Assembly: GCA_963778755.1 (NCBI GenBank)
Contig: CAVZVJ010000004.1
Coordinates: forward strand, 18,836-82,835
Direction of reading: 5' to 3'
DNA: 64,000 nucleotides
DNA from: an uncultured Acidobacteriota bacterium
Lineage (GTDB): Bacteria > Actinomycetota > Acidimicrobiia > Spongiisociales > ZC4RG35
Under the pieces are notes generated by a model, which saw only the letters and a list, made by a program, of their open reading frames with translations, was not told the DNA's origin and searched no databases. Both the position numbers and the translations under genes were made by a program. Shown here piece by piece: positions 2,737 through 48,646 of the stretch (its first letter is position 1; each line of letters begins with the position of its first letter).

Positions 2737-3273
2737 TCAGCCGACCGAGAGCTCTTCGATGACCAGGGCGGGCTCGGGGATCAGGTCGAGAAGTTCGGTG
2801 TTCAACCGGTAGAAGATGTCGGCAGGCAAGGAGCCCTGCCCGTGTCGACGATTGATCTCCTTGAGCAGGCTAAGCCACCTGCCGCACGCCTGGGCCGGTG
2901 TTACCGCGTCCGACTTGAGCGCTTCCCGGGTCTCAACGATGCGCCGTTCCAGATCGGGGAGATACTCCTCGTCGGATCTGGCTTTGACGACAGGTTGCTT
3001 CGGCTTCACCACGGCCAGGCGACGGTGCTCCTTGATCCCTAGTTCTGCCGCGAACCGGGACGACTCGCTCACGATGAGAACCACATCCTCGCCATCGACC
3101 TTCATGTGAAAGCCGTCGGACATGCTGATCACATCGAGGTCCTCGAGTCGAAGGACCGCCACTGTCCGATCCCCGGAGGTCAGGGTCATCCGCTCGTGTT
3201 GGATGTCGATCTCTACCCCAAGAGGGAGTTTGGCCCGACCAGGCAAGTGAAGCCTTGCGGTGAACGTGGACAT
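2737..3273 (-). CDS. conserved hypothetical protein, paralog A (N-terminal beta domain plus C-terminal helical domain)
   Basis: ATG 3273 is preceded by GGAGGG, and the longer listed ORF (to 3345) has no RBS. It is clearly paralogous to 54736..55338: the first ~80 residues are about two-thirds identical by eye, and both share the C-terminal LKEINRRH...LLDL motif. Confidence 0.7.
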   Translation of the reverse strand: MSTFTARLHLPGRAKLPLGVEIDIQHERMTLTSGDRTVAVLRLEDLDVISMSDGFHMKVDGEDVVLIVSESSRFAAELGIKEHRRLAVVKPKQPVVKARSDEEYLPDLERRIVETREALKSDAVTPAQACGRWLSLLKEINRRHGQGSLPADIFYRLNTELLDLIPEPALVIEELSVG

Positions 3274-3437
3274 CGTCCCTCCGTCTCGTGTTGGCCGGTC
3301 GGTCCGGGTGATCATGTCACTCCTGTAATCGTCCAGTTGGTGCACCTGGGTTACGGCGATCTCGTGAGATGAGGAGAGGGGGGCAGGCCACTGGCCTGCC
3401 CCCCTCTCCTCGGCTCCGTTTGGTCGGAGATCTGTGG

Positions 3438-4235
3438 CTAGTCGTCGTTTCCCGGAGCGGACCTTCCTGGGTTGTCGGGCTTGCCGGCGTGGTCAGGTTT
3501 GCCGGACTCGGGCTTGCCGGCGTGATCGGGCTTGCCGGCGTGGTCGGGTTTGCCGTTCCCCTGAGCGTCGATGTCATCCTCGATGTCGGTCTTCTGCCCG
3601 TGCTCACAGTCGGCCTCGACCGAGGCGAAGTCGATCTCGCCGCTCTCGCCGCCCACGATCGGGTCAAAGTCGGGGTCTTCACCCGGTGCGACCTGTTGGT
3701 CGCCCTTGCCCAGATCGGATTGGGCCAGGTGACGGATCAAGCACCCTCGGCCAGTCCCCTCATAGAGGCTGTTGAACAGCTTCATGAACATGCCGTGGTT
3801 CACCTGGCCAGCCGGCCCAGTTACATCTCCTCCGCTCACACCACATTCACTGTCGGCGCCGCTGTAGGCGAACGGTGCGCCGGCAGGCTCGAGACCTTCT
3901 GCCAACTCCTCTTCCGGCCGCTCGGGGAAGATGACAACCCCAGCTTCGTTCTGGAGGTCGTCCACCGGGATCACTCCCTCATCGGTGGGCGCCCCATAGG
4001 TGGCGGTGTAGGTCCCATCGAGACTGCAGTCGAAGAGTCCGTCGAGTGCGCTCAGATTCCATCCGAGGAATCGATGCAGGATGTCGTAGCCGAAGCTGAA
4101 CAGGGTGTCGGCGTCGTGCGCGGTTTCAGTTTCCTCGACTTCGGGGGTTTCATCTTGGGCCCACGCCACCCCCGAGCCGACGAGGAGTCCGAACAGGACG
4201 ATGGCTGTGGTCCCCGGTTTGACAAGTCTTCGCAT
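3438..4235 (-). CDS. secreted acidic protein with C-terminal GKPDHA repeats
   Basis: Has a signal peptide (MRRLVKPGTTAIVLFGLLVGSGVAWAQD), and the C-terminus is GKPDHAGKPDHAGKPESGKPDHAGKPDNPG. The opposite-strand ORF 3369..4238 looks like a GC shadow. Confidence 0.7.
   Translation of the reverse strand: MRRLVKPGTTAIVLFGLLVGSGVAWAQDETPEVEETETAHDADTLFSFGYDILHRFLGWNLSALDGLFDCSLDGTYTATYGAPTDEGVIPVDDLQNEAGVVIFPERPEEELAEGLEPAGAPFAYSGADSECGVSGGDVTGPAGQVNHGMFMKLFNSLYEGTGRGCLIRHLAQSDLGKGDQQVAPGEDPDFDPIVGGESGEIDFASVEADCEHGQKTDIEDDIDAQGNGKPDHAGKPDHAGKPESGKPDHAGKPDNPGRSAPGNDD
3477..3554. repeat. in-frame tandem 18-nt repeat (gggcttgccggcgtgrtc) inside the secreted-protein gene
   Basis: Direct reading finds units at 3477-3494, 3510-3527 and 3528-3545, plus partial units. 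They encode the KPDHAG repeats. Confidence 0.85.
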
Positions 4236-4440
4236 TGATTCCCTCCAATAACTTCACCCCCGTAATCGACCGAAACGAGATTTGGGTTACGAGGGCGAGC
4301 GCCAGCGGCGTTTGGACATTCGGCTACAGGGAAAGCAATAGGAATCACCGCTCAGGACTAGGCGATCACTGCCGATAACTGATCTGGGAGTCCTGTTGCG
4401 GACGATGCCGCTGTCGATATGGATCGAGCTGAACTGAGCG

Positions 4441-4992: not shown

Positions 4993-5855
<863 letters not shown>

Positions 5856-5916
5856 TTCGTTCCGAACGTCATGTCCGGCTTTGAGAAACTGTCACCGTTG
5901 CTCCAGTAAAGATCAA

Positions 5917-5942
5917 GTGGCGAGGGTGTAACCCCTCGCCAC
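5917..5942. terminator. bidirectional stem-loop between convergent genes
   Basis: There is a perfect 10-bp stem, gtggcgaggg (5917-5926) with ccctcgccac (5933-5942), around a 6-nt loop. It sits between the stops at 5855 (+) and 5948 (-). Confidence 0.6.
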
Positions 5943-5947
5943 GTCGG

Positions 5948-7159
5948 TCAACCGTTGGTCTCGTACCAGGCGGCCCAGTCGTCGATGTTGTCCAGGATGA
6001 GATTGCCGCAGTTTTCGGTACGAGCGGTGGCGCAGCCCGATTCCGCGTACTCGTCCTTCAGGTCGCCGCTGTCAGCGAAGCGCTGGAAGCTGTCCCGGAG
6101 CTCGGTGTCCTCGGGGTAGTTGTCCTCGTACCACACCTGTTCCCCGCCGCGCTCGAGCAACAGTGCATCGATCATGACGCTGAACTCTTTGACCGTCACT
6201 GCAGGCGGCTTGCCCACGGCGCGATTCATCGCATTCGAGTGGTGCACTTCGCACGACAGATCTTCGAGGTCTCCGGACGTCAGCGTCTCACAGGCTTCGA
6301 CCGAGATCTCTGCGCCGAGGATGGACTCATACTCCATCATGCGAACCGGGGAAGAGGACGGCTGGTCAGCACCGGAAGCGCAATCGTCGGCGGTGTGTCC
6401 GTCGTTGAACTCGCTGCCGCTGAGGAAGATTGCTTGTTCACAATCTCCCCCGTACCAGGATTCGAGTGTGGCCTCCACGACCTGCGCCGGCTCGAGCGGG
6501 GTCTTTCGCCACTCCACCCAGGCGTCGAGGTTCTCGAGCTGAATCGCGGCGCACGACTCAGGGAACGGGCCGAATCCGCAGTCCTCGTAGCCGTCGAAGC
6601 GACCTTCGATCGCGAGGAAGGTCCCCATCTGGAGCACTATCCACGAATGCTCGGGGAATCCGAATTCTGTGATCACACCGTCTTTGACCACCACCCGGTT
6701 CGAGTCACCATGATCGACGGAACCTAGGGCGTCTGTCATCGCATTCTGATACGGCACCCGGCAGTTGAACACCCCATCGGTCCCGCCCGTGCAGTTGAGG
6801 GTCAGCCGCCCTCGGATGGCCGCCTGATAGGCCGCCTCGTCGCGTATCTGCTGGTCGGTCCGATCCGGCAGCTCGAACAGCTCGGCGGCCCGCTGGGCGT
6901 CACCCGAATAGAACGCAGCGACTCCAGCTTCGATCGTTTCGAGGTCCGTCAAGGCCTCGAGATCAGGCGCAGCGGTGGTCGCGGTTGGTTCTGCAGCCAC
7001 CGTTGTCGGGGTCGGTTCGACCACGACGTCGGGCTCGCGGGCAAAGGCGAAATACAGGCCGGCCACAGCGAGGATGACGACCAATGCCGCCACCGCCCAC
7101 GCGGGACCCCTGTTCCGTTTTGGTTCGTTGGTTGTCGGTGATGGTTGTGTCTTGGTCAT
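5948..7159 (-). CDS. membrane-anchored hypothetical protein (N-terminal TM, Thr/Pro linker, Cys-containing extracytoplasmic domain)
   Basis: A 403-aa ORF. The TM is GPAWAVAALVVILAVAGLYFAFA, followed by the linker EPTPTTVAAEPTATTAAPD. No family was recognised. Confidence 0.65.
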   Translation of the reverse strand: MTKTQPSPTTNEPKRNRGPAWAVAALVVILAVAGLYFAFAREPDVVVEPTPTTVAAEPTATTAAPDLEALTDLETIEAGVAAFYSGDAQRAAELFELPDRTDQQIRDEAAYQAAIRGRLTLNCTGGTDGVFNCRVPYQNAMTDALGSVDHGDSNRVVVKDGVITEFGFPEHSWIVLQMGTFLAIEGRFDGYEDCGFGPFPESCAAIQLENLDAWVEWRKTPLEPAQVVEATLESWYGGDCEQAIFLSGSEFNDGHTADDCASGADQPSSSPVRMMEYESILGAEISVEACETLTSGDLEDLSCEVHHSNAMNRAVGKPPAVTVKEFSVMIDALLLERGGEQVWYEDNYPEDTELRDSFQRFADSGDLKDEYAESGCATARTENCGNLILDNIDDWAAWYETNG

Positions 7160-7190
7160 GAGTGTCCTCTTCGTTGTTCACGACCGTCGA

Positions 7191-7213
7191 GGAGGGGCGG
7201 GTTGGGCCCCTCC
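7191..7213 (-). terminator. stem-loop downstream of the TolB-like gene
   Basis: ggaggggc (7191-7198) pairs with gcccctcc (7206-7213) around a 7-nt loop, 24 nt after the stop at 7237. Confidence 0.45.
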
Positions 7214-7236
7214 CCGATCGTTGTCCTCGCCTCGGT

Positions 7237-8178
7237 TCAGCGTGTGCTCACGTAGATGTCGGCCTGTCCCTCTCCACCGACTCGGGTGGATCCGAAGTAC
7301 AGGATCCTCCCGTCCAATGACAGCGACGGCCGCGTCTCTGCCAACGGGCTGTTGACGTTCGGGCCCAGGTTCTGCGGTGTCCCCCAGGTTGTGGCGAACC
7401 ACTTCTTGGTCGACGAGTAGATGTCGGCCGCGCCGAGCGTGCCGGCACGGTCGCTCCAGAAGAAGATCTCCCTGCCATCCACTCGCACGTTGGGCTGACC
7501 CTCGTTGGCCGTAGTGTTGATCCCCGACAGCTGCGTACCCGCCTGGAACGCCCCTCCCTGCCACAGCGACGAGTAGAGGTCGTGGTCTCCCGGGGCATCG
7601 CTTGCGTCAGCGGGCCGGGCACTGGAGTAGAAGAGCACCAGCCCTTCACCCACCATCAGCTGTGGGAACGGGCTGTGCTCGTCCCAGCCACTGTTCACCT
7701 CGCATCCGAGATGGGTCACCGAGGCCGTCTGCAGGTTGGAGTCCAGCTTCGCCGTGTACAGGTCGGCGTTTGCGGTAGCGCCGCAAAAGCCCGGCCTGTT
7801 ACTGGCGAAGAAGAACGTCTTCCCGTCTCGCGACAGCGTCGGGCAGAAGTCGTTGGCCGCCGTGTTGATCGGTGGATCGAGGTGTACGGGATCGCCCCAG
7901 GGCTGGCTCTTGCTCGCTCTGGTCGATACCCAGATGTCATTCATTCCCAAACCGCCGGGACGGTTCGAGGCAAAGAACAACGTCTTCCCGTCTGCCGAAA
8001 TGTTGGGGCAGCCTTCGTTACTGACCGTGTTGAAGTTCTCGTGGGCTCCGGCACCGAAGTCCTCGATGCTCTCGGCCGCGCTCCAGTCGCCAGAGCCTCC
8101 GCCCGCGACGGCGGCCAATGCCCCGGAGAGCACCATCGCCATCGCCACCGCGACGATGGTCGCACTGCGTCTCATCAT
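7237..8178 (-). CDS. secreted TolB-like beta-propeller protein (PD40/WD40-like repeats)
   Basis: Has a signal peptide (MMRRSATIVAVAMAMVLSGALAAVAG). It carries repeated DGKTLFFASNRPGG...DIWVS, DGKTFFFASNRPG, DGREIFFWSDRAG...DIYSS and DGRILYFGSTRVGG...DIYVS units. Confidence 0.8.
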   Translation of the reverse strand: MMRRSATIVAVAMAMVLSGALAAVAGGGSGDWSAAESIEDFGAGAHENFNTVSNEGCPNISADGKTLFFASNRPGGLGMNDIWVSTRASKSQPWGDPVHLDPPINTAANDFCPTLSRDGKTFFFASNRPGFCGATANADLYTAKLDSNLQTASVTHLGCEVNSGWDEHSPFPQLMVGEGLVLFYSSARPADASDAPGDHDLYSSLWQGGAFQAGTQLSGINTTANEGQPNVRVDGREIFFWSDRAGTLGAADIYSSTKKWFATTWGTPQNLGPNVNSPLAETRPSLSLDGRILYFGSTRVGGEGQADIYVSTR

Positions 8179-8249
8179 TTACCTCCTCTTGGCGGAGTTG
8201 CTCACGGCATCTCCACCGGTAGTCCTTCCCGTTTCCATGCCTCGATCCC
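8113..8249. repeat. copy A of a ~137-bp direct repeat (signal-peptide codons, RBS and a relic of the rhodanese 3' end)
   Basis: Aligns by eye with 8782-8916 at close to 90% identity. It includes catcatttacctcct and atctccaccggtagtccttcccgtttccatgcctcgatccc. Confidence 0.85.
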
Positions 8250-8250
8250 G

Positions 8251-8847
8251 CTATTTGGCGACGACGTCGAAGGAGTCCGTGCCGGCGTCATACGCACCAG
8301 CCGGGACGCAGCTCTCTTCGAATACGGGGCTGAATCCGTCGCAGTGGGGGGCGCTGAAGATCCAGAACGATGTGACCGTGTGGGTTCCGACCCGTAATGG
8401 CCGGACCGCTCCGAGCGTCATGGCGCTAGCTACATCGGTGTTGGGGAACACGAGGTGTTCGTGGGTCCACAGGCTCGGGCCGGTGGCGAACTCGACTGTG
8501 AACTCGTGCTTCGTGCCCTGGTCGACGACATATCTGATTGCCACGAACTTGGCCACGAAGTCTTCGAGCGGTGTTGCGCCTACCGGAACGAACCCATCGG
8601 GCACGTACTCCCAGCTCTGGTTTTCGGTCCAGAACTGTGCCCGCACCCACCAGTCGCCGGCCTTGATCGTCGGGCAGAAGGGCGCCACGATTGCGGCCGA
8701 GATACCGAGGGTCGCATTGATGTCGATGTGATTCGGGGTGACGCAGTGCTCGGTTCGTGTGCTGTCGGCCTGGGCCGTGGAGGCCAATGCCCCGGAGAGC
8801 ATCATCGCCATCGCCGCGACGACAATTGTCACGCTACGTCTCATCAT
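8251..8847 (-). CDS. secreted hypothetical protein
   Basis: A 198-aa ORF. The signal peptide MMRRSVTIVVAAMAMMLSGALASTAQA is nearly identical to that of the neighbouring TolB-like gene. The mature part has no recognised family. Confidence 0.7.
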   Translation of the reverse strand: MMRRSVTIVVAAMAMMLSGALASTAQADSTRTEHCVTPNHIDINATLGISAAIVAPFCPTIKAGDWWVRAQFWTENQSWEYVPDGFVPVGATPLEDFVAKFVAIRYVVDQGTKHEFTVEFATGPSLWTHEHLVFPNTDVASAMTLGAVRPLRVGTHTVTSFWIFSAPHCDGFSPVFEESCVPAGAYDAGTDSFDVVAK

Positions 8848-8916
8848 TTACCTCCTCTGGTGAAGCGCTCACAGCATCTCCACCGGTAGTCCTTCCCGTT
8901 TCCATGCCTCGATCCC
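8782..8916. repeat. copy B of the ~137-bp direct repeat (signal-peptide codons, RBS and the genuine rhodanese 3' end)
   Basis: See copy A. Here the distal part is the real C-terminus of the rhodanese gene (GGIEAWKREGLPVEML*). Confidence 0.85.
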
Positions 8917-9285
8917 ACCGTCGAGCACACGGACGTCCCGATAACCCATAGACCGCAATGTGGCGCCGGCCATGGCGGAGCGTTCGCCCGTCGAGCAGTA
9001 GAGGATCAGGCGGCGTTCGGGGTCGAACTCGATGCGGTGGCGTCGATCCGAGGGATCTGCCCAGAACTCGAGCATGCCCCTCGGGGCCCACACCGAGTCA
9101 CGGACCCAACCCACCACGTGGAGTTCGTCTTCCTCACGCAAGTCGACGACCAGCGTTCCCCCGGTGAGCTCTTCGCTCACCTCATGGGGAGCCAGCCTCA
9201 CCAAGCGCTGGAACGCCTCCGCCACCAGGTCGGCGGCGGTTCGCTCGAGACGTCTTGACCCTGTCGACATGCCGCCAATTTGCAT
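8869..9285 (-). CDS. rhodanese-like sulfurtransferase domain protein
   Basis: Has the active-site loop LYCSTGERS and the ending RVLDGGIEAWKREGLPV. The start is ATG 9285, or the internal ATG at 9270. Confidence 0.85.
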   Translation of the reverse strand: MQIGGMSTGSRRLERTAADLVAEAFQRLVRLAPHEVSEELTGGTLVVDLREEDELHVVGWVRDSVWAPRGMLEFWADPSDRRHRIEFDPERRLILYCSTGERSAMAGATLRSMGYRDVRVLDGGIEAWKREGLPVEML

Positions 9286-9375
9286 CCGGGCTCTGGTGGC
9301 TCACTTGGTCGATCCCTGCGAAGCTTCCCAGTGGTTTCCCAGAGAAACGCGAGACGATTAGAACCCGGCAGAGGA

Positions 9376-12300
9376 GTGCGGAGGAGAGTCGAGATTCACA
9401 CGTTGAGATACCGGGCGCTCGGCCCGATCACGGTCGAGCTCGACGGTCATGAGGCGAAATTGGGCGGTCTCCGCCAGCAGATGGTGCTCGCGGTACTGCT
9501 CCGCTCGGCCAACCGGGTCATCTCCCAGGACAACCTGATCGACTCGGTCTGGGCCGGAGAACCACCCGAAGCGGCCCGGGCCACCGTTCAGAGCTACATC
9601 TACAACCTCCGTCGCGTCCTGGGGCCTGATGCCATCCTCCGACGCGGCGATGGCTATCTGATCGAGGTCGACGCATCCACGTTCGACGTGCTCGCCTTCG
9701 AGAAGATGCGTCGAGACCGGGGCAGAGCTCTTGAGGACGGAGCCCGCCTCTGCCCGGGCAACCCTCGTTGCGGGGTTGGACCTTTGGTTCGGCAATGCCT
9801 ACGGCGGTGTCGACCACCCGGAACTCGATGCCGAGATCAGGCGTCTCGGCGAGATGCGAGTCACCGCCATCGAGACCCGAATCGAAGCCGACCTCGCCCT
9901 GGGCCGAGCCGGGGAGCTCGTGGCGGAGCTCGAGTCCCTGGTTCGGGACCATCCGCTCCGGGAGAGGTTCTGGGGCCAGCTGATGCTCGCCCTCTACCGG
10001 TCCGGGCGGCAGGCCGAGTCGCTCCGAGCCTTCCAGAGCGCCCGCGCCCATCTCGTCGACCAGCTCGGCATCGAGCCGGGTGCCGAGCTGGAGGACCTCG
10101 AGGCCCGAGTCCTCGGTCACGACCCTTCGCTGCTCCTACCCATCGAGGCCGAGGCCTCGATCGCCGGTGACCGAAGCCGTCGATCGATCCGTGGATATGA
10201 GCTGCGCGATGTAATCGGCTCAGGGGAGTTCGGTGTCGTCCACAGGGCCTATCAGCCATCGATCGGACGGGAAGTGGCTATCAAGGTCATTCGGGCCGAC
10301 AGCTCTAACGACCTTGCTTTCGTGAGTCGCTTCGAGAGAGAGGCGCAAAGGGTGGCCAACCTCGAGCATCCCCACGTGCTGCCGCTCTACGACTACTGGA
10401 GAGACCCGAGTGGCGCATATCTCGTGATGCCTCTGATGCGTGGGGGCAGCCTCGAGGACTCACTACGCGGAGGCGGTTGGAACCTCGAGCCGGCACTGCG
10501 ACTCCTCGACCAGGTGGGTGGCGCACTGGCGTATGCCCACCGCCGGGGGATGGTGCATCGCGACCTGAAGACGAGCAACGTCCTCCTCGACGAGGACGGC
10601 AACGCCTATCTATCCGACTTCGGGATAGCGGCACCCATCCCCGGGAACGCCGAATCGACGTCGAAAAGGCTGCTCTCTCCCGAGGAGGCCTCAGGTAAGG
10701 AGGCGACGTTGCGCACCGACATCTTCGCGCTCGGCGCCCTCACCTTCGAGCTCCTCGCAGGCGTGTCCCCATCAGGTTCGTCGCACATACCCGATCTGCG
10801 AGAGGCCCGTCAGGACATACCCGAGACGGTCGCGGCGGTCGTGGCGAGGGCGATGGCGACCGACCCGAGGGAGCGTTATCTCAAAGTCGACGAGTACTTG
10901 CGCGAGATTCGCCGTTCGGCCGGTGTCGACGTCGTCGCCGCTCCCGGGGTCGTGGCGACGCCGTCGGAGCCGATTCGCAATCCCTACAAGGGCTTGCGCG
11001 CATTCGCCGAGGACGACGCCGTTGACTTCCACGGCCGTGGAGCCCTGATCGAAGACCTGATGGCAGCGAATCGCCTCCCACCGGTTGGTCACCGTCGTCG
11101 GCCCCTCCGGGAGTGGGAAGTCCTCTGTCGTCCGTGCAGGGCTGATCCCTGCCCTGAGGGCAGGGATCCTCACCGACTCTCGTGACTGGCTTGTGACGGA
11201 CATGTTCCCGGGCTCGTATCCATTCGAGGAGCTGGAGGCAGCCCTGTCCCGTGTGGCGGTGCGAACGCCGGTGGGGATGCTCGCCGAGCTGAGCCAGCCC
11301 AACGGGCTGCTCAGGGTGAGCAAGCAGATCCTCCCCGGCGACGACTCCACCCTCCTGATCGTCATCGACCAATTCGAAGAGCTCTTCTCGACGGTCCGCT
11401 CCGAAGAGACCCGTCGCAGTTTCCTGGAGAACCTCATATCCGTAGCCGCCGACGAGCGGAGCCGGGTCAGGGTGGTGGCGACCATCCGCGCCGACTTCCT
11501 CGACCGTCCTCTGGCATACGCGGACTTCGCCGAAGCGATCGCCGATGGCATTGTTACCGTAGGGCCACCGACGCGGGATGGGTTAGCCCAGGCAGTCTCG
11601 GCTCCGGCCCGGATCGTGGGGTTGGACCTCGAGCCGGGGTTGGTGGGCCGCATCATTTCCGACGTCGAAGGCCAGCCGGGGGCCCTTCCCCTACTCCAAT
11701 ACGCCCTGACTGAGATGTTCTCTCACCGGGACGGGTCGACCCTGACCATCGCCGGGTACGAGGCCACCGGCGGCGTCGCCGGAGCCCTGGGCCGACGGGC
11801 GGAGGAGCTGTACGAGGGGTTGACCCCGGCGGGCATGCTGGCGACACGCGAAGTCTTCCTCCGTCTGGTGACAGTCGACGAGTTGGGCACCGTGACCCGG
11901 CGACACGCCCGACAGGCAGAGCTCGTGTCCCTCGCGGTCGACCGCGGCGGGCTCGAGTCTGTGTTGAAGGCCTTCGCCGGCTTCAGACTGCTCACCTTCG
12001 ACCGGGACCCGGTGACTCGTGGACCGACGGTGGAGGTCGCCCACGAGGCTCTTCTCAACGAGTGGCCGAGGCTTCACGGCTGGATCGAAGACGCCCGAGA
12101 GTCCCTCGTCCTGGCGCGCCGCGTAGGCGAGTCGGCTCAGGAGTGGGTCGAGTCGAAACGAAGACCCAAGCTATCTGCTTCGCGGTGTGCGTCTCGAGGA
12201 CGTCGAGACCTGGGTGTCGCGAGCAGACGTGGTGCTGACCAGCGACGAGTCCCGGTACATAGCGGCGAGCATCACACAGCGCGAAGCCGAGGTAGGGGCA

Positions 12301-14553
12301 GCCCGGAGACGCCGAAGACGAACGGTCGCAGCCCTCACCGCTGGCCTGGTGCTCGTGAGTGCCCTGGCCACCATCGCGTTCTGGCAGAGAGGCGTGGCCC
12401 AAGAGGAGGCTCTACAGGCTCGCGCCCGAGAGTTGGCGGCGGCTGCGGAAGGGCAAATCGGGCAAAACCGGGAGCTCGCCCTCCTCATCGCCGCCGAGGC
12501 GTTCGACGCCTCCGTACGCGGGGGGGCACAGCCAACCACGGAGGCAGTGAGCGCCATGGCGCAGGCGATCCAAGATTGGCGGCTCGTTTCCCGTTTTCCG
12601 GCAGGGCCGCTCGTTTATCCAGACGTCTCACCGGACGGATCGCTGGTCGCAGTCGCATCCAAGACCGCTCCGCGCGATGTAGACGTATTCAGTGTCGACG
12701 GGTCCTTGATCGGGACACTGCACGGCCCCGACGATCCCACGGTGGCCGCCTGGCAGGTGGATTTCAGCCCGAACGGCGAGACGATCACCGTCACCTACGC
12801 CGCTCCCGCCAATGTTGACGCCTTCGGGACGGTCCCTGACGGTATCCCAGACGTCCGGATCTTCGACCTGGCCACCATGTCCAGCATCCTGGATCTTGAC
12901 ACCGACCATGGTTGGCAATACGTCGCGCACGACCTCGACGGCACCCGGCTGGCGCTCTCGTTTGGCAGCGAAGTACGGATACTCGACGCTGTCGATGGAA
13001 GCGAAATCTCCAGGATCGAAGCGTCGTCGCAAGTCGGTCGCGCCCAGTTCCTCGACGACGACACCATTTTGGTGCCGATCGAGGGCTCCGGCTTCACCAT
13101 CTTCTCCGCCTCCGACGGCTCGATGGGAGACCATCTCGAAGTCGCCGAACTTCATCCAGAAATCACTGCTGTCAACGACCTACGAACCCACGTCGCCTAT
13201 CGGGACGGAGAACAGGTTCGGGTCACAGAGCTCGCCACCGGTGAGACGACTTACGAACAGACGGCCCCGTCAACGCAGGCCCTAGCCCTTAACCCCGACG
13301 CAACCCGCCTCGCCCACTCCGGATTCGACCCGAACATCTACGTCGTGGCTCTTGGCGAAGGCGAGACGGAGCTGGAGCTGACAGGGATATTGGAAAACGT
13401 GTTTTCGCTCTCATTCATCGGAGACAAGCAGCTCCTCTCCTATGGAGAAGATGCGCTGCTGTGGGACGTCTCACCGGAAGGCGTGAGTGAACTGGGCGGC
13501 ATCCCCTTGTTGGAACTGCAGTGGGGATACCAGATGTCCGACGATGAACGGTGGCTCGCCTACTTCGTGTCGACCAACAGCGGTCTACCAACTGGCGACC
13601 CGGTGGACGGTCTGAGACTGATAGACCTCACCACCGGTGAGGAGACGGTGATCAGCCAGGGAGAGTGGAACTCCGTGCCTGCCGGGGTTCGCGTGGTGAG
13701 CTCCGATTTCACGAGGGTCGGCTCCCTCACTCTGGACGGAGTCTCCACCATGCGAAGCCTCCCCACCTGGGATATGGAGAGGGAGTTCGACGCCTGTCGA
13801 ACGCCACTGGCGGTCACGCCCGACAACGGCCGCGCCGTTCTCTCGGGATGGAGCTGTGCCGATCAGGCCATGCCCGACTCGGCCCGGAGCTCGGTCGTCG
13901 ACCTCCGCTCGGGGGAGGAGATCTTCTCCCTTTCCAACCAGACGCTGTTCTCGGCAGAGTTCAATCCTGAAGGAGCCTTCGAAGCGGGAACCCTCCTGGC
14001 CGCTACCGATCAGATGTCTGTCGGGGTGTGGGACGTGAGCGATGGAAGTCTGCTCGGCAGTCTCGACAGAACCGTGCACGACGAGTTCGGCAACATCCTC
14101 GTCGTGTCTTTCGATCCCAGCGGACGCTATCTCGTTGGTGGGACCACCAGTGGCGCGGTTTGGGTCGCCGACCTGGAGCGAGTGGTCGCCGGCGAAGACA
14201 TGGCCGACGCGCTCGTATTCAATCGGCAGGCACACACCGGTGCAGCACCCGTGCCCGCCATGAATGGCGAGGGCGTGGTGGGCACCGCCGGATTCGACGG
14301 CATGGTGCGGCTCTGGGACCTCGACTCCGAAGACTTGATCCTCGAGTTCGAGTCGGACGTTGGGATCCCGGTGGTCCGCTTCTCTCCCGATGGCACCGAG
14401 CTCCTCTATCCCCACGGGCTCAGTATCCGACGCATGCCCGTCGATCCGTCCCAGCTACGTGCCCTCGCCGCCGACCTCCTCACCCGCGACTTCCTACCCG
14501 ACGAGTGTGCGCGTTATGCCACGGCGGACCGATGCGAGACAGTGAGCGGATAA
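9376..14553 (+). pseudogene. giant SARP(OmpR-wHTH)-BTAD / Ser-Thr protein kinase / STAND P-loop NTPase / TM / beta-propeller protein, with the reading frame broken three times (+1 each)
   Basis: There are four colinear ORF pieces. Frame 1 to ~9710 reads LRYRALGPITVELDG...QSYIYNLRRVLG. Frame 2 to ~11068 carries BTAD (LDLWFGNAYGG...RERFWGQLMLALYRSGRQAESL) and a kinase (GSGEFGVV, AIKV, HRDLKTSN, DFG). Frame 3 to ~12160 carries VTVVGPSGSGKSSVVRAGLIPAL. Frame 1 to 14553 reads DPSYLLRGVRLEDVETW, then the TM TVAALTAGLVLVSALATIAFW, then PD40/WD40-like repeats. The start is uncertain (GTG 9376 or TTG 9403). Confidence 0.75.
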
Positions 14554-14638: not shown

Positions 14639-15766
14639 CTACGGGAAGTCGTTCCGGGCGCGGATGACCAGGTCCACCATGTTCGAGCCTCCGCTGGCAC
14701 CGTTGTTCGAGGCGTTCTGCCAACTCTGGTCTGCGACGACCCGGGGCCACGGCTCGCCTGACCACCACCCGAAGAACGGACCGCCGGACTGGCCCGGCCA
14801 GACGTCCGCCTGGTGGTACATCGCCTGGTTGGTCCCCGGCTGGGTGTCGTCACCGTTCAGGCTGAAGCTGCCCTGGAACGACGGGCGGGTGCCCGAAGCG
14901 AGGTCACCTGGATAGCCGATGTGGCTCCAGTAGTTGCCTCCATCCCAGCCGTCGTCGTAGGTACGCGAGCCCATCCAGCCGGTGAGGTCACCCATCCGCC
15001 GGTCGAGCACCACGACCACATAGTCATTGCGTGCCTCGGTGCCGTCGATGGTGGGGCCGTTGACCTGCTGCTGCCAGTAGATGTGCGACCCCCATGCAGC
15101 GCCAAACGGCTGGCTGCCGTCGAAGTAGGACGGCATGAACTTGATCCACCCCGCAACGTAGGGATTCGGGTTAGCGATCCACTGGATCGTGTGGCTGCAG
15201 GTGAGCAGGTGCCGTGGCCCGACCATCACGCCGGACGCATAACCCCCGGCCGACGTCTCAACGCGCCCGGCGGTGCACCACGGAAAGGCCGTGTCGCTGA
15301 ACGTATAGCGGTTGTCCGGTGCGAAAACCGTTGTCGCCCAGCGTGTCTCAGGATCATCAGCGGCCAACGTGTTGATCTTCTTGCGGATGGCCAGTCGCTT
15401 GTCGAGCTTCTCTGGCCGGACCCGCAGGGCGAGGTGGTCAGGTAGGAAACCCACCAACGACTCGCGGTGCCCCTCCTCGTCGAGCAGGTCCCGGCGGGTG
15501 GGCAGTCTCGTCCCCTCCATCCCCGGACCAAACACGTGCGTGCCCAGTGCGGCGCGAGCCACCTCGACATCGATCTTGAACACCGGCGTCTCCTCATCGC
15601 TGGTGTAGATGGGTTGGACCAGCTCGATGTGCCGGGTCTCAAGGTGCGGCTCGCGGCCAGCCAGAAACAGCGTCTGGGTCAGCGATACGTCAGGCATCGG
15701 CGTGAGCGCCTCGCGCGCCTCGACCATCCTGGTGAGCGCCGCGTATTTGATTGGTGCCTCAGTCAT
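14639..15766 (-). CDS. trypsin-fold serine protease (V8/Glu-endopeptidase-like, S1B) with a ~140-aa N-terminal extension and no signal peptide
   Basis: The catalytic triad contexts are LLTCSHT (His), NDYVVVVLD (Asp) and WPGQSGGPFFG (Ser). The N-terminus MTEAPIKYAALTRMVEAREAL is not hydrophobic. Confidence 0.8.
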   Translation of the reverse strand: MTEAPIKYAALTRMVEAREALTPMPDVSLTQTLFLAGREPHLETRHIELVQPIYTSDEETPVFKIDVEVARAALGTHVFGPGMEGTRLPTRRDLLDEEGHRESLVGFLPDHLALRVRPEKLDKRLAIRKKINTLAADDPETRWATTVFAPDNRYTFSDTAFPWCTAGRVETSAGGYASGVMVGPRHLLTCSHTIQWIANPNPYVAGWIKFMPSYFDGSQPFGAAWGSHIYWQQQVNGPTIDGTEARNDYVVVVLDRRMGDLTGWMGSRTYDDGWDGGNYWSHIGYPGDLASGTRPSFQGSFSLNGDDTQPGTNQAMYHQADVWPGQSGGPFFGWWSGEPWPRVVADQSWQNASNNGASGGSNMVDLVIRARNDFP

Positions 15767-16184
15767 GACTCCTCACTTTCCCGCCGGGAGCTCCCGGTCG
15801 GTCGGATGGACATCGACATTTAGGTCGGCGATCTGCATCGCCCGATTCATTCCGTAGGCGCCGCCCTGGGGCATCGCTGCACCCACGACCCGCGCCTGCT
15901 CGATGCGATGGTTTCAATGCCCATCTATACCGCGCCATGGATGGTTGGGCTATGACCAGTGTTGGCAGGTTTCTGCCAGATTTGGCGGTAACAAGCGTCC
16001 ACAAAGACGCGTATTCGCTGAAAAACGTGTCGCAGCGCGCCCTCACGCTCCGGGGAGGGTCAGATCTAGTCGTAGCAAGTGCTCAGGCTCGGTTGACGTA
16101 CGTTCGGACGATGGATGTCGCCTGCCATAGCTTGGCGTTCGACCCAACTCGTCCCGTTTCTCAAAACGAGTCTGCCTCACCCGT

Positions 16185-17171
16185 ATGCTCGGTGAAGTGA
16201 CCGCTCCCTCGTGGCGTCTCCTCGATATCGCCGACTCCCGGATCGACCTCGTGATTGACCACAGCCCCGGACTGGTCACGATCGGAGGGTTTAGAGATCG
16301 ACCCTTTCTCGCTCTGGCTGACGACCGGGGCATCGTCGAGGAGTTGGTCATTCCTCCAGCTGCGGCCGTGTACGGCCCACCCCGCTCGGTCAGATGGGGC
16401 GAAGGCGGGCTCCTCGGCGTCTGTGGTCCCACCGGACTCTGGCACCAGGATGCGTCCCGGAAGACCACCGTCCCTGAGCTCCCGACAGATGAGGAAGGGA
16501 ACACCGCCGAATGGCTATGGGTGACGTCCGGTGACGGGGAACTCCGAGTGGTCGCGGATTATCCGACCGATCGCGGCAGGGAGCTCCGGATCTGGGACGA
16601 CCAGCTGCGTCTGCTCACACGAGAGCGGAGCCTCTACTTGCTCGACGATCCACGTGAGCTTCATGTCTCTGCATTCGCAGGTCGTGTGGTGGTCTGTGGT
16701 CCGGTCGGGGAGGCCCCGCCTGCATCGCTCACCATGTGGTGGACCCGCACCTACCAAGCGCCGGCGTTTGATCTCGAGTCCGCGCATCCACGCTGGGAGC
16801 AGGTATCAATGGCGCCTGCCCCCGATCTTGTCACCCACGGTCTCGACTGGGACGCGGCGGCTTTTTTCGCCGGCGTGGTGGGTGGGAAAGCAGCGGTATG
16901 GGACCAGGACGGAGAGTTGCGGCACACAATGGATATCACGATCGATTCGAACGCTCCCTTGGTCATCCTCGCCGAAGCGCCACCCGACGATGACTTGACC
17001 TCCACAGCGGTACAGGCGGCCACCGGCGGTGTGTTGGTTCATGCCGGCGAGTCGTATCCGATGCCGAAAGGGACACTGACCAGCGCCGTGTTGAATCGCG
17101 GCTTCGACCGCCCGCGGTGTTTCGCCGTAGTCGACGGAGATCTCCACGTGATGGAACTCTCATACGACTGA
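16185..17171 (+). CDS. hypothetical protein
   Basis: A 328-aa ORF with an ATG start and protein-like composition. No motif was recognised. Confidence 0.55.
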   Translation: MLGEVTAPSWRLLDIADSRIDLVIDHSPGLVTIGGFRDRPFLALADDRGIVEELVIPPAAAVYGPPRSVRWGEGGLLGVCGPTGLWHQDASRKTTVPELPTDEEGNTAEWLWVTSGDGELRVVADYPTDRGRELRIWDDQLRLLTRERSLYLLDDPRELHVSAFAGRVVVCGPVGEAPPASLTMWWTRTYQAPAFDLESAHPRWEQVSMAPAPDLVTHGLDWDAAAFFAGVVGGKAAVWDQDGELRHTMDITIDSNAPLVILAEAPPDDDLTSTAVQAATGGVLVHAGESYPMPKGTLTSAVLNRGFDRPRCFAVVDGDLHVMELSYD

Positions 17172-17236
17172 CGTCCAACTCAAACACGACCCCGTCTCGC
17201 TGGACCTCGAGTAACGGCCTTGGCTAAACCGGTCTA

Positions 17237-18829: not shown

Positions 18830-20853
18830 CTAGGCCCCCCACCCGATGAGATGCCACACGGCGAGCTGGCCGACAACCATCAGTGCCGCGACAGCCAGCG
18901 CTGCGTACTCGCTTTTCACCAGCTTCGGCCACCAGCCTCTGAGCCATCCCACAACTACAAGAACCAGCGTCAAGCCGCCGAGAATGCTCAAGGCCAGCGG
19001 CAGGTGCATCGCGAGCCGCTCGACCAGCGGCAGCTGGAGCCAGCCCAGGAAACCGGAGTCGATGAGTCCGGGCATCCACACAATCAGGGCCACGGTCGTC
19101 AGCGTGATCAGGGCCAGGAACGTGGCGACCGTCGCCGAGATCCGCGGCCACAGCTGGGAGGCGGCCGGGACCGGGGTTGCGCCGGAGCGCGAGCGAGATC
19201 GGCGGAGGGCTCGAACTGCGGCAGCGATGAGCCAGGCGGCGGCCAGGACCGCGGCGGTCACGAGGATCGCCCACTGCCATGGTGCGGGACCGCCAGTGAG
19301 GCGCACCATCCTGATGCTTCGCCATGTCGGCACCGGACCCGAGAGGTCGAGCGTCTCACCATTCTCGGCGAGAAAGACACCGGGCGCGACCTCGACGAGA
19401 CGAAAACGTTCGAGCGTCCCATCCTCGTTGGCCTCGAAGTAGGGAGCACCGCCCTCCATCCAGAACCGGGCTGCAGGGGCGGTGGGGTCGATCACACCCC
19501 AAGAAGGCGCACCGTACGCTCCGACGGCAGGGAACCAACGCTCAGCTTCGTCACCGGTCGGATCCATGGCAGTGCTCTCGACCAGGGCTGCCAGGTCCGC
19601 CGGAGGCTGGAAGGAACCGCTCGGTTCCTGGGCCGAGACACGATCCGGAAGCCCCAGCAGCCGGTCGTGGTAGGGGCCGGGCGCTGCCAGCAGGTCACCG
19701 AGGATCGACAGCGCCAGGTCGCCCTGCAATTGGTGGTCCTCGGAGTTGGTGAGGACCGCGATCCCGATCCCCAACTGGGGGGCCCACCATATGTCGGAGA
19801 GGAATCCGTAGCCACCGCCGCCATGGTTGAAGAGATCCGGTGCCTGCCGCCAGCGGTTCCAGCGATGCCGAGTAACCCCAAGTGCGTATCCCGCCGGCGC
19901 GCCGGCGTACGGCGCTGGGACGACTCGCATCTCTTCCATCGACTGTGGGTCGAGGACTGCCATGCCGTCGATCGAGCCGTCGTTGAGCTGGAAGCGGAGA
20001 AACCGGGCCAGGTCGGTGGCGCTCGAGTACATGCCACCTGCGGCCGTCATCGGCTCGTAAGAGCGGCGGGGCAGGAAAAGGATCTGCGTGGCCCACCGCC
20101 CGGTTGTCGGCCGAGCGAATCGCCGACCGATCGAAGGTGCTGCGGCCCATCCCCAGCGGGTCGAGCAGGGAGTCGTGCATGACCTCGAGGGAACGGCTTG
20201 CCTTCGACCTGTTCGAGGATGTGGCCGGCCACGTCGATTCCGAGATTGGAGTAGGCGTATCCGTTACCGACCGGGAAACGCAACCAGGTGTCGGAGATGC
20301 TGCGGACGTGTGCCTCGAACTCGCCAGGGTCGAGCTCGTTGTTGTTTCCCACGGGCGCCTCCATGGTGAAGCCTGCGGTGTGGCTGAGGAGCATCCGAAG
20401 TGTGATCTTCCGCTCCGGGTGCTCCTCGAAGGCGCTGTGAACGGTGAACTCGGGCAGGTAAGTCGTGATCGGCTCGTCGAGGTCCAGCTGGCCGGACGCG
20501 ACCGCCTGCATGACCGCGGTCGCCGTGAACAGCTTCGACATCGACTGGATGCTGAAGATCGTGTCGGGGGTGACCTCGGCGGAGTCCGGTCCATCGAGAT
20601 GGCCGAATCCCTCGACCCACAACACCTGATCAGCGTCGACGAGGGCAACGGCGAGACCGGGGATCCCCTGTTCCGCCATCAGGCCCGGGATGCGAGCCCG
20701 GTACTCCTCGATCACCGCTGCCGCCGCATCCGCCCCAAGGGTGTCTCCCTGCGAGCCCGACGCAGGGATCGGACCTGCAACGGAGAACGCCAGAGCCGCA
20801 GCGACGGCACCAATCATGCATCGACGAAGCGGTGGCGCAGGGGCATCAATCAT
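18830..20853 (-). pseudogene. serine hydrolase (beta-lactamase / PBP family) with a C-terminal 4-TM domain, with the frame broken twice (+1 each)
   Basis: SMSK (SxxK) and YSN motifs lie in ORF 20047..20853. The sequence continues as LEVMHDSLLDPLGMGRSTF in a second frame (~20190-20065) and as SYEPMTAAGGMYSSATDLARFL...HGGGGYGF in ORF 18830..20050. The tail has four hydrophobic helices. Confidence 0.75.
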
Positions 20854-21098
20854 GTCGACCTGCCTCGCCTCGCCGAGGCCCCGTGTTGGCCCAGTCCCAT
20901 GGCTTGTCGAGCAAGCTGGACAGGTGCTGTCGAGGAGGCAACCATCGGATACCTCAATCCGAAACCGATACGCCTACATGATCCGACTCATTGCCCTTAG
21001 TAGCCAGAGGCGAAGGTCATAGTGGGAAGGTTCTTTCGAACGCTCCTAACCGGTCCTCGGTTGCGAGGCGTCACCCGTCCTAAGCACCGGCTCTTCTC

Positions 21099-34502: not shown

Positions 34503-34518
34503 TTGGTGCTCCCTCGAC

Positions 34519-34770
34519 TCAGCTGTGTTCGCTGACGGGGTAGATCTCGTCGGCGACCAGGCCGTGGGCCTCCCGGTGAACCGTGTTGGCCCTCTCGGCG
34601 TTCTCCGCCTCGACCAGGCAAAAGATCTTGCCGTTCGCTTCATCTACCCAGTACCGCTTGTACTCCACCCCGTAAGCAGCCTGGGTCTCCAGGTCCCTGG
34701 CGTGGGCCTGGGCCACGTCGGCCTCCGATACCCCGCCCTCGATGTTGTGCACGTCCATGAACAGTGGCAT
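34519..34770 (-). CDS. DUF4242 family protein
   Basis: MPLFMDVHNIEGGVSEADVAQAHARDLETQAAYGVEYKRYWVDEANGKIFCLVEA is typical of this family. It ends 16 nt before the LuxR-type gene starts. Confidence 0.8.
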   Translation of the reverse strand: MPLFMDVHNIEGGVSEADVAQAHARDLETQAAYGVEYKRYWVDEANGKIFCLVEAENAERANTVHREAHGLVADEIYPVSEHS

Positions 34771-45208: not shown

Positions 45209-46583
45209 TCAGTCGAAGCCGAAGAGCGGGGGAAGAACGACGACGACGACCGCCGCCCAGATGGCGAAGACGGGGAGATAGGAGGTTTGCCAGCGTTCGA
45301 GGCGGTGGAAGGCGATCTGTCCCCTGAGAAACCGCATAGATAGCCAGGCTGCCCCGGCCAGGTTCACCAGCAGGACGAGGTTGAGCCCCAGCGCCGCCGT
45401 ACGGTTCGGGGTGAACCCGAGGTCACTGATGCGGGCCACCATCGTGCCCAACACCATCACGTCGAGCACGAGCGCGCTGGCGACGGTGACGAGTTGGACG
45501 CGGTCCATCCATCCCGGCGGGAGAGACGGCTGCCGCGCCGAGGATCGCGTAGAGCACCAGTCCGAGCACAACCACCAGCAGGACGTCGAAGACTCCGAGC
45601 AACTCTCGGTCGAACACTCCAGAGAGCCCGGTCCCTGCGTAGGTGACCGCGGCGACGGTCAGCATCAAGGCGAACAGGGGAGTGAAGAGCATGGTCAGAA
45701 CCGGGGCCATGTTTTCCACGACCCGCTGTTTGGACTCCACGAGCCACGCTGCGATGATCACCGCACCGGCCGCGCCCGAGGGCAACACCCACTCGAAGAC
45801 CAACTGCGGGAGGTCGGTTCCGATCGGCTGCAGTATCAGCGCGGTGAGCATGACCAGCACACCGCCACCGAGGGCGATCAGCGCGTAATAGATGACCCAC
45901 TCTCCGGTGAAACGAACGAAGTCCATTCGCCGTTCGTGCGATCGGAGCGTGCCGCTCACGTACGGGTAGGCGACCGCGAACCACAACAAGACAGGCAGAT
46001 AGAGCGCCACCAGAAGCTCGGTGTCCGAGATCGTCGTCGCGAAGACCTCGGTGTTCGAGCCCGCGCCGAATGGGTAGAGGTTGACCAGCAGTGCGGAGAG
46101 GACAAACGGCGCAGCGGTTAGCAACCATCGTCTGATGTCGAACTGCCGCCGAATGGCGAAGTACCCGGCGAGGAAGGGCAACACGAACAAACTCGCGTTT
46201 CGCAGCAGCCACCCCGGTTCCTCCTCGGGAAACCCAGCCGCGAGCCGTGCGATTTGGATCGCGACAGCGGCGGCCAGGGCGAAGCCGAGCGCCTCGAAAC
46301 CCCCGCTGGACGGACGCGCTGGCTCATCCTCATCTGTGGCGATCAGCTGCTTCCAGAGTCGATCGCTGTGCTCGAGAGCGAACTCCCGGGATAGGGTGTC
46401 GATGTCCCCCATGCGCTTCACAGCAACGAGGAACGCCTCATCGGCCGTGAGGCCGGCCGAATCCAACTCGGCGATCTGATCGCGAAGATGACCCTCTAGC
46501 TCATCGACGTCCCGGCCGTTCACGGCCGGGGCCCTTCCGACGTAGGCCCGCCACTCGGCAATTTGTGTTTCCACGGCATCCAT
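45209..46583 (-). pseudogene. PadR-associated polytopic membrane protein (N-terminal cytoplasmic helical prefix plus DUF4153-like permease body), with the frame broken once (+1)
   Basis: ORF 45423..46583 (AEWRAYVGRAP...LVAVKRMGDIDTLSREFA, then many TM helices) continues as GWMDRVQLVTVASALVLDVMVLG... in ORF 45209..45571. The junction is near 45511-45525. Confidence 0.65.
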
Positions 46584-47404: not shown

Positions 47405-47413
47405 TTGGACAGC

Positions 47414-48430: not shown

Positions 48431-48646
48431 GCAGCAATGCCGCCTGCGAGGCCGCGGAGGAGGGGGTCACCTCGGCGTCGAGACCCGGTGTGACCGCGAA
48501 GGCCGCCCTCGGGTCGATCGGCTCCAGTGGCTGATCGCTCATCGGTGCCATCTGTGTGTATATACATCGTCGTAGCGATTGCCGCTGGTCCGATGACCGG
48601 TCGAGCCGTCATCGGCTGGTGGGAACTAGTCTCCAAATTCGGTGCG

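Follow-up and report, generated by a model that had tools for sequence, protein, structure and literature searches.

The receptor kinase PknD possesses a transmembrane (TM) helix and an extracellular NHL propeller, and AfsK carries PQQ-type repeats. The SARP AfsR of Streptomyces is phosphorylated by AfsK, autoinhibited by its NOD and TPR domains and activated by ATP (PMC10936776; PMC10972967). SARPs have been reviewed as small forms, medium forms with NB-ARC, large forms with NB-ARC and TPR, and SARP-LAL, a classification in which WD40 is not mentioned (PMC10972967). Here we describe a composite gene on the + strand of a 64,000 bp stretch of DNA, hereafter the window (positions 18,836 to 82,835 of contig CAVZVJ010000004.1, assembly GCA_963778755.1, GTDB class Acidimicrobiia). 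Its product combines a SARP module, a Ser/Thr kinase, an nSTAND1 nucleoside triphosphatase (NTPase), a predicted TM helix and a C-terminal part modelled as tandem WD40 propellers, and its reading frame is broken by three single extra bases. With moderate confidence we regard the gene as intact and its breaks as artefactual, the product holding AfsK/AfsR-type signalling in cis in a single-pass WD40 receptor.

Four reading-frame pieces of one gene

The + strand between 9280 and 14553 contains four long open reading frame (ORF) pieces in frames 1, 2, 3 and 1, overlapping end to end:

9280/9376-10170 (+), piece 1, frame 1
9731-11185 (+), piece 2, frame 2
11085-12818 (+), piece 3, frame 3
12187-14553 (+), piece 4, frame 1

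Taken as they stand, the pieces match successive Pfam families: piece 1 Trans_reg_C (5.9e-11), piece 2 BTAD (profile positions 21-146; 1e-39), Pkinase (1.6e-39) and the first 28 positions of nSTAND1, piece 3 nSTAND1 positions 31-376 (E 1.4e-104), and piece 4 WD40-type propeller profiles. BTAD and nSTAND1 are thus each split over a junction, which shows far beyond chance that the pieces were once a single reading frame. Deletion of 9707, 11063 and 12158, with TTG 9403 as the start, gives an ORF of 5148 nt with 0 internal stops and a product of 1715 amino acids (aa), the modal length among relatives of the composite protein:

9403-14553 (+), composite gene with three extra bases, corrected product 1715 aa, start TTG 9403 from homology

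The four pieces are one gene for one 1715-aa protein, as a preliminary description of this DNA had proposed: the same Pfam set is found in over 100 unbroken ORFs of 1680-1960 aa, and all relatives among the matches listed are single ORFs rather than separate genes. On the corrected protein, profile hidden Markov models for BTAD (1-146/146) and nSTAND1 (1-378/379) run uninterrupted across the junctions.

The start had been placed at GTG 9376. Most likely it is TTG 9403 instead, to judge from the orthologue gene calls, which begin at M-R/K-Y-R-A-L-G-P, corresponding to TTG 9403. Moreover, the orthologue on locus L082 carries a 1-nt indel directly at the start codon; the frame ahead of 9403 is therefore not conserved and appears non-coding.

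The three extra bases

The orthologue DNAs compared were those of P0001 on L001 (91% aa identity), of P0003 on L082-L085, and L011. Contig names are of the MEGAHIT style (k141) for L082-L085 and of the SPAdes style (NODE) for L011; L001 bears a generic 'contig_' name, taken as long-read style. In the nucleotide alignment of the coding region with L001, L082 and L011 just three indels are uncompensated, and at each of them the window has one base more than the orthologues; the remaining indels are in-frame or compensating alignment pairs:

9707 (+), extra base 1 (T), within BTAD, frame 1 to 2; window AGA[T]GCG against AGA-GCG (L001) and GAC-CG (L082)
11062-11064 (+), extra base 2 (G), in nSTAND1 between the GR motif and Walker A, frame 2 to 3
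12158-12160 (+), extra base 3 (A or C), at the end of nSTAND1, frame 3 to 1

At extra base 2 the window reads GAT[G]GCA against GAT-ACA in L001 and ATCG-AG in L082, and L011 is likewise without the base. At extra base 3 the window reads GAAACGAAG against GAAA-GAAG in L001 and GAA-CGAAG in L082, and the extra letter can be placed as GAA[A]CGA or AAA[C]GAA. The three +1 breaks of the preliminary description are therefore three single extra bases relative to intact orthologues, and its junction estimates (9701-9712, 11066-11072 and 12156-12164) were good to within a few bases.

A frame plot of the GC content at third codon positions (150-nt windows) was too noisy at 64% GC, and a codon-usage Viterbi segmentation was used instead. 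It found the junctions again, with switches at 9709/9710, 11062/11063 and 12155/12156. The blastx comparison of the window with the ORFs of 85 related loci also recovered the three junctions strongly; other window genes have no homologues in those loci.

Substitutions were assigned by parsimony with L082 as outgroup. The window branch carries 72 synonymous and 25 non-synonymous changes, with a ratio of non-synonymous to synonymous rates (dN/dS) of 0.12, and the branch of L001, where the gene is intact, 152 and 87 (dN/dS 0.20). There is no non-synonymous excess on the window branch, no stop codon, and the other indels are in-frame, i.e. no sign of decay beyond the three breaks.

SARP, kinase and NTPase modules

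The corrected protein comprises the following features, with residue numbers counted from TTG 9403:

9481-9657 (+), OmpR-type winged helix-turn-helix (wHTH) DNA-binding domain, Trans_reg_C, PF00486, residues 27-85
9682-10114 (+), BTAD, PF03704, residues 94-237, containing break 1
10193-10951 (+), Hanks-type Ser/Thr kinase domain, PF00069, residues ~264-516
10982-12161 (+), nSTAND1 NTPase, PF20703, residues 527-921, containing breaks 2 and 3
12304-12381 (+), RRRRRR (967-972) followed by a predicted TM helix (974-992), by Kyte-Doolittle
12583-14439 (+), tandem WD40 beta-propellers of ~13-14 blades, predicted extracytoplasmic, by AlphaFold2 and Foldseek
14446-14550 (+), C-terminal helical cap with the cysteine pair C1701 (14506-14508) and C1710 (14533-14535), by conservation

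All modules named in the preliminary description are present, Trans_reg_C, BTAD, Pkinase, nSTAND1, TM helix and WD40-type propeller each matching profiles or motifs. With an N-terminal wHTH followed by BTAD the composite protein is a SARP by domain content. PF00486 scores 38-42.7 bits (cut-off 26.2), and PF03704 follows directly with 147.5 bits over its full length. The closest solved structure to residues 1-251 is the SARP domain of AfsR (8hvr, 8jke, 8k60; 1.5e-41), and the module also matches the EmbR structure 2fez (5.4e-34).

The kinase region (264-516) has its closest structures in StkP, PknA, PknB and PknE. It is of the RD type, with the motifs GSGEFGVV at 272, VAIK at 291, HRDLK at 385 and DFG at 405, and its residues G272/G274/G277, K294, D387, N392 and D405 are all present, so that the window copy is a complete Hanks kinase, as had been described, of predicted activity. 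The NTPase matches PF20703 with 390.7 bits (cut-off 27.1), and its landmarks are NPYKGL at 526, GPSGSGKS at 566, DQFEE at 655 and DPSYLLRG at 920. The overall order, SARP plus kinase, nSTAND1 and tandem WD40, is the STAND layout on one polypeptide.

Aligning 103 family members shows which residues are conserved. No member deviates at Walker A K572/S573, Walker B D655, E658/E659 or R695 (103/103). All four kinase catalytic residues are canonical in 77/103 members and the HRD aspartate is replaced in 24; about 25% of the family are predicted pseudokinases. Invariant NTPase motifs, set against a kinase dispensable in about a quarter of the members, suggest which module is the core of the mechanism and mark the NTPase as its indispensable engine.

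Predicted membrane helix and sensor

Residues 974-992 have a mean Kyte-Doolittle value of 2.28 over 19 aa and form the sole such segment in the protein. A hydrophobic segment (Kyte-Doolittle >=1.6) occurs in 101/102 members of the family; the net charge flanking the helix is +5.1 on the N-terminal against +0.4 on the C-terminal side, and the positive-inside rule is obeyed in 100/102. The window protein possesses just four cysteines, all located after the TM helix, and none in the 970-aa N-terminal part. In 97/102 members an even number of cysteines follows the helix. Nearly all members keep C1701 (102/103) and C1710 (101/103), and a second pair, C1464/C1484, is kept in 77 and 76 of 103. The hydrophobic helix, the positive-inside pattern and the paired cysteines behind it are signs of an exported, disulfide-bonded domain, and the C-terminal sensor is predicted to be exported, with the N-terminus inside and the C-terminus outside.

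AlphaFold2 modelled residues 928-1715 with a predicted local distance difference test (pLDDT) of 92.4 and a predicted template modelling score (pTM) of 0.85. The model contains a 72-residue helix that includes the hydrophobic segment, ~50 strands and a C-terminal helical cap. Its best Foldseek matches are double seven-bladed WD40 proteins, namely 2ymu (1e-28), Utp21, Aip1 and Apaf-1. Of the PD40/WD40-like propeller in the preliminary description the WD40 part stands, as a tandem WD40 double propeller in AlphaFold and Foldseek, and the PD40 part does not.

Size and distribution of the family

The corrected sequence was compared with 5.8 billion proteins, of which 8000 candidates were scored and 120 listed. 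Among the candidates scored, 5010 match at E <=1e-10. More than 100 of the 120 listed are clusters of 1680-1960 aa, with 38-91% identity and a query coverage of 83-100%, the relatives of ~1680-1775 aa being covered to 99-100%, and all full-length relatives listed carry the Trans_reg_C, BTAD, Pkinase, nSTAND1 and WD40 families. Among the source names are 'BTAD domain-containing putative transcriptional regulator [Acidimicrobiia bacterium]' and one Jiangella protein.

An exhaustive HMMER search with the piece spanning BTAD, the kinase and the start of nSTAND1 covered 1.84 billion representatives at 50% identity. The best 150 matches listed all have E <1e-93, and most align in one stretch over query residues 3-445, beginning at residue ~110-135 of a ~1700-aa protein; the number of 50%-identity clusters with the fusion is hence 150 or more. 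A scan of the GTDB representative genomes yielded 423 stretches coding for relatives. Its best full-length match is L003 (83% identical), and L011 holds a 203-residue fragment with 94% identity. Chloroflexota matches start at the kinase, without BTAD. The architecture, which had been called an uncommon combination, is common in uncultured Actinomycetota, mostly Acidimicrobiia and other Actinomycetota. Literature searches for a BTAD/WD40/kinase/STAND architecture and for STAND NTPase/transmembrane/WD40 found no description of it. The family is thus large, widespread and uncharacterised, a variant of SARP-STAND regulators and of receptor kinases.

A sub-family of ~1850-2100 aa (P0047, P0071, P0111, P0112 and others) has ~150-200 extra residues between BTAD and kinase; the segment was seen in the sequences read, e.g. 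P0071, P0111 and P0112. Several of these members, e.g. P0071 and P0112, match the class III adenylate/guanylate cyclase family PF00211 and may thereby add a second-messenger output to the same scaffold.

A conserved repeat upstream of the gene

Two sequence features precede the start codon:

9325-9346 (+), candidate SARP box of two 11-bp direct repeats, TTCCCAGTGGT (DRup, 9325-9335) and TTCCCAGAGAA (DRdown, 9336-9346)
9353-9358 (+), -10-like hexamer GACGAT (nAnnnT), 6 nt after the second 11-bp repeat

TTCCCAG-N4-TTCCCAG, with a period of 11 bp (9325-9342), is the best-conserved block among 10 orthologue upstream regions. Invariant positions make up 11/22 of the candidate box against ~10/95 of the flanking intergenic DNA. 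Nowhere else in the window is the exact motif (0 mismatches) found; each orthologue locus has one copy, likewise in this position, and 75 other loci have none. Further sites in the window with up to 3 mismatches are no more frequent than by chance, so that no regulon can be defined.

Scans for sigma-70 promoters and terminators around the gene ends found nothing, and near the candidate box there is no canonical -35/-10 pair. The lack of such a pair is typical of activator-dependent promoters and proves nothing. In the orthologue upstream alignment A9354 and T9358 are invariant, as expected for -11A and -7T of a -10 element, and transcription is predicted to start near 9365. Such a start would place the repeats at about -40 to -19, with DRup at about -40 to -30. 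The afs box of AfsR has the same geometry, 11-bp direct repeats at -40 to -19 (PMC10936776). A conserved upstream repeat with the geometry of the AfsR box points to autoregulation, possibly affecting the divergent rhodanese promoter as well.

At 9291-9296 (+), ~20 nt ahead of the conserved start of the rhodanese gene, a conserved CTCTGG repeats in inverted form the CCAGAG (9339-9344) of the second TTCCCAG repeat; it may be a third half-site for the divergent promoter. The most distant orthologue examined, L008, carries an extra inverted TCCCAG-N5-TCCCAG copy adjoining the direct one (3180-3196, -).

Neighbouring genes

The composite gene is flanked upstream by divergent genes with Pfam matches:

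7237-9285 (-), divergent neighbours: rhodanese gene (8869-9285) and gene of a secreted PD40 protein (7237-8178)

Both are syntenic in L001-L006, L008, L010 and L082-85, i.e. in orthologues down to ~57% identity and not in more distant relatives. Between them the window, and only the window, contains a gene for a 198-aa secreted protein (8251-8847, -) without a Pfam match and without a counterpart in any of the 85 loci; its signal peptide is near-identical to that of the adjacent PD40 protein (MMRRS.TIV..AMAM.LSGALA).

Downstream the window possesses a 375-aa protein (14639-15766), which matches Trypsin_2 below the curated cut-off only. It had been suggested, as a V8-like protease, to be a neighbour of possible interest; none of the 85 related loci contains it, and for this reason and the sub-threshold match it was rejected as a functional partner. 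In relatives the same side of the composite gene (L082 15411-18260; L001 13183-13829) holds variable PemK, PIN, CcdA, PhD and AbiEi/AbiEii modules.

Other frame breaks

Frame breaks of the +1 type also occur elsewhere in the window: at least three are confirmed by a contiguous Pfam match after bridging, and several more are probable. The beta-lactamase-family (serine hydrolase) gene at 18845-20880 (-) is spread over three frames by +1 breaks near 20092 and 20190; bridged, it matches PF00144 in one stretch (3-312/329, 224 bits), against unbridged fragments of 146 and 49 bits. A TIR_2-TPR gene (59097-61147, +) is broken by +1 at 59505/6 inside the TIR domain, and its bridged TIR_2 is contiguous (1-121/122). 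A LuxR/AAA_16 gene (31823-34529, -) consists of two overlapping ORFs with a probable +1 break near 33352. Codon-usage segmentation further gives a possible +1 switch near 45523 (45212-46583, -) and a weaker one near 48415 (47063-48560, -), with no Pfam support either way. The window therefore seems to carry insertion-type frame errors in several genes, which bears on any other finding made from it.

Some of these genes deserve a remark of their own. The product of 59097-61147 (+) combines TIR_2, a TM helix, an Ig/cadherin-like domain and TPR repeats and is a possible conflict or defence gene; just upstream of it, the membrane-protein gene at 57528-59058 (+) has a possible +1 break near 58719. 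The protein of 31823-34529 (-) is LAL/MalT-like, with an N-terminal AAA_16 and a C-terminal GerE/LuxR HTH, and is a second STAND-type regulator in the window.

Locus L001 has breaks of the same type. About 7 uncompensated single-base insertions lie at ~5300-7500 and 3380-4386 (aligned to window positions 5919-8249 and 16182-17190). They break genes for a 403-aa hypothetical protein, the PD40 protein and a 328-aa protein, all intact in the window and in L082, and leave the L001 copy of the composite gene (5.1 kb) intact. Insertion-type lesions are hence patchy in assemblies of this lineage.

Proposed mechanism

The anatomy described above (the observed domain order, motif conservation and upstream repeat, and the modelled sensor fold), together with the literature on AfsR, STAND proteins and receptor kinases, allows a mechanism to be proposed. 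The protein would sit in the membrane with its N-terminus inside and its C-terminus outside, where the disulfide-stabilised propellers would bind an extracytoplasmic ligand. The signal could travel along the long TM-containing helix and relieve the autoinhibition of the NTPase, which would exchange its nucleotide and oligomerise, as in AfsR, MalT and Apaf-1. Oligomers would juxtapose the kinase domains for trans-autophosphorylation, or serve as pure scaffolds where the kinase is degenerate, and would likewise juxtapose the SARP modules. Side by side on 11-bp direct repeats overlapping the -35 region, the SARP modules could then recruit RNA polymerase; the predicted targets include the gene's own promoter with its TTCCCAG-N4-TTCCCAG box at 9325-9346. 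The kinase AfsK and the SARP-STAND activator AfsR would in this way be joined in cis, in a membrane-bound activator like ToxR with the receptor topology of PknD.

Alternative explanations

The interpretation of an intact receptor gene has several points weighing against it, which concern the breaks as well as the function. Three breaks in 5.1 kb exceed the window average of ~1 per 6-7 kb, with a chance of ~0.05-0.1 by a rough estimate; nor is break 1, a T flanked by A and G, a homopolymer slip. An exact look-up of the 788-aa piece and of the protease matched no record, i.e. gave no independent copy of the lesion, and two metagenome scans with patterns over junctions 3 and 2, the break base being optional, returned 0 matches. 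The spacing of 16 nt from the Shine-Dalgarno sequence to TTG 9403 is long. As given, the sequence shows the disrupted reading frame by which a pseudogene is recognised, and the three extra bases might be real, in a gene very recently inactivated in this strain. Such a pseudogene would account for three independent breaks in one gene, one of them no simple slippage product, next to ~5 kb of syntenic neighbours without an uncompensated indel against L082 and L001; moreover, STAND/NLR-like genes are often lost or variable across strains, and a variable toxin-antitoxin and Abi hotspot lies directly downstream in relatives. We nevertheless consider it rather unlikely. The low dN/dS of the window branch, with neither non-synonymous excess nor stop, is not that of a decaying gene, and a gene with three neutral indels should normally also have gathered tens of neutral substitutions, a general expectation rather than a computed value. 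Natural decay favours deletions, and the Viterbi segmentation contains no -1 break in the window, every switch in the opposite direction (shift 2) being a normal stop/start gene boundary. As all detected frame breaks are +1, a technical insertion bias fits better than natural decay; the three breaks most likely reflect window-wide insertion errors. That they are errors and not gene decay we hold with good confidence, and the gene is therefore probably intact in the organism. It is extremely improbable that the pieces are four separate genes arisen by fission, or that programmed +1 ribosomal frameshifting joins them. Each downstream piece does contain an in-frame TTG or GTG codon, but the breaks lie inside BTAD and nSTAND1, and piece 3 would have to start at Walker A without the N-terminal part of its domain. 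There is neither a 0-frame stop nor a slippery motif at the break sites, and the orthologues lack the extra bases and are unbroken; both possibilities were rejected on these grounds.

The receptor function has its own difficulties. A membrane-tethered protein of 1715 aa could reach a promoter only awkwardly in mechanical terms, unless it works like ToxR or is cleaved. The candidate box and the start site are sequence patterns only, and with ~25% of the members lacking kinase catalytic residues phosphotransfer is no family-wide requirement and cannot be the core of the family mechanism. The hydrophobic helix could also be buried rather than membrane-spanning, in a wholly cytoplasmic protein like Apaf-1 or AfsR whose WD40 sensors are intracellular. 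To our knowledge all well-studied STAND and NLR-type proteins are intracellular. The tandem propellers of Apaf-1 are among the sensor's closest structural matches, and the helix is modelled within one continuous helix of 72 residues. Yet the segment stays hydrophobic in all but one of the 102 members, its flanking charges are asymmetric, and the cysteines are paired and in part near-invariant behind the helix while absent from the 970 aa before it; a cytoplasmic protein thus appears unlikely, though far from negligible. A different function again would be that of a conflict or immunity STAND, with propellers that detect an invader or a non-self cue and a kinase-SARP end that, as effector, reprograms or shuts down the cell, rather than that of a housekeeping or developmental regulator. 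The nSTAND1 family was defined in the context of conflict systems, predicted to counter invaders, with N-terminal effectors that include S/T/Y kinases (PMC8195603). Catalytically dead kinases, sometimes coupled to wHTH, are common in related actinobacterial conflict systems (PMC7159879, Kaur et al.) and parallel the predicted pseudokinases found here. The propeller is the fastest-evolving part, with 20/25 of the non-synonymous changes on the window branch and 81/87 on the L001 branch, and toxin-antitoxin and AbiE modules adjoin the gene in relatives. This conflict function is nonetheless distinctly improbable: PADLOC matches the generic kinase domain only and no defence STAND model, the N-terminal module is a transcription activator and no toxin, and a sensor exported from the cell would have no contact with phage proteins inside it. 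In the clade of orthologues the gene furthermore retains its synteny with the rhodanese and PD40 genes and evolves under purifying selection, unlike a mobile island.

Implications

If the proposed signalling receptor is correct, the fusion is a 'Rosetta stone' for the link from AfsK to AfsR (kinase to SARP-STAND), conserved in cis far beyond Streptomyces, and STAND/NLR signalling extends to receptors with an extracytoplasmic sensor. It would also offer a testable regulatory circuit, with promoter box, DNA-binding module and invariant NTPase switch, in Acidimicrobiia, for which we know of almost no characterised regulators. More tentatively, and somewhat short of an even chance, the family could be an undescribed transmembrane class of STAND proteins, an 'outside-in NLR' of hundreds of uncultured Actinomycetota lineages: extracellular WD40 propellers, NTP-driven oligomerisation and a kinase or pseudokinase together with a SARP acting on its own promoter, anchored in the membrane and merging the logic of AfsK and AfsR.

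Comparison with known systems

The nSTAND1 conflict proteins belong to the same PF20703 family and share the order of N-terminal effector, NTPase and C-terminal repeats (PMC8195603). They differ in that the effector of the window protein is a transcription activator plus kinase and not a TIR, caspase, trypsin or nuclease domain, and the texts searched of the nSTAND1-defining papers mention neither a TM-separated WD40 sensor nor a SARP fusion. The PADLOC matches listed all fall on the kinase domain, between residues 246 and 530, and neither the NTPase nor the sensor is matched by a model of Avs, bNACHT or another PADLOC defence STAND.

AfsR (SARP, NB-ARC/NOD and TPR) resembles the composite protein in its N-terminal OmpR-type wHTH and BTAD, its central STAND-type NTPase and its C-terminal repeat sensor, and by prediction also in control through Ser/Thr phosphorylation and ATP. 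However, AfsR combines NB-ARC with TPR and the window protein nSTAND1 with tandem WD40; the latter has a built-in kinase and a TM helix between NTPase and sensor, and the alignment with AfsR ends at residue 251. No NCBIfam model reaches its cut-off on the corrected protein. The AfsR equivalog NF053617, with a cut-off of 1430 bits, aligns to residues 1-252 only and scores 165.8, and the models of PknD and AfsK give weak partial matches far below their cut-offs. The composite protein is neither an AfsR orthologue nor a member of the small, medium, large or SARP-LAL classes.

With receptor kinases of the AfsK/PknD type it shares a Hanks kinase N-terminal to a beta-propeller sensor. In contrast to these it possesses a SARP before the kinase, a 400-aa STAND NTPase between kinase and TM helix, and a 14-blade WD40 tandem. 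EmbR of Mycobacterium tuberculosis (SARP and FHA), which is phosphorylated by PknH, is likewise a SARP wired to Ser/Thr-kinase signalling, but its FHA domain reads the phosphorylation by a separate kinase, and it lacks NTPase, TM helix and propeller. ToxR, CadC and TcpP join an N-terminal winged helix in the cytoplasm through one TM helix to an extracytoplasmic sensor, the layout predicted here in topology only; they are 200-500 aa long, without kinase or NTPase, and are not known to share homology beyond the wHTH fold class. Apaf-1, finally, has a STAND NTPase followed by tandem WD40 propellers, as in the composite protein (3shf is among the Foldseek matches), but is cytosolic, with a CARD effector, an NTPase of the AP-ATPase clade and no TM helix.

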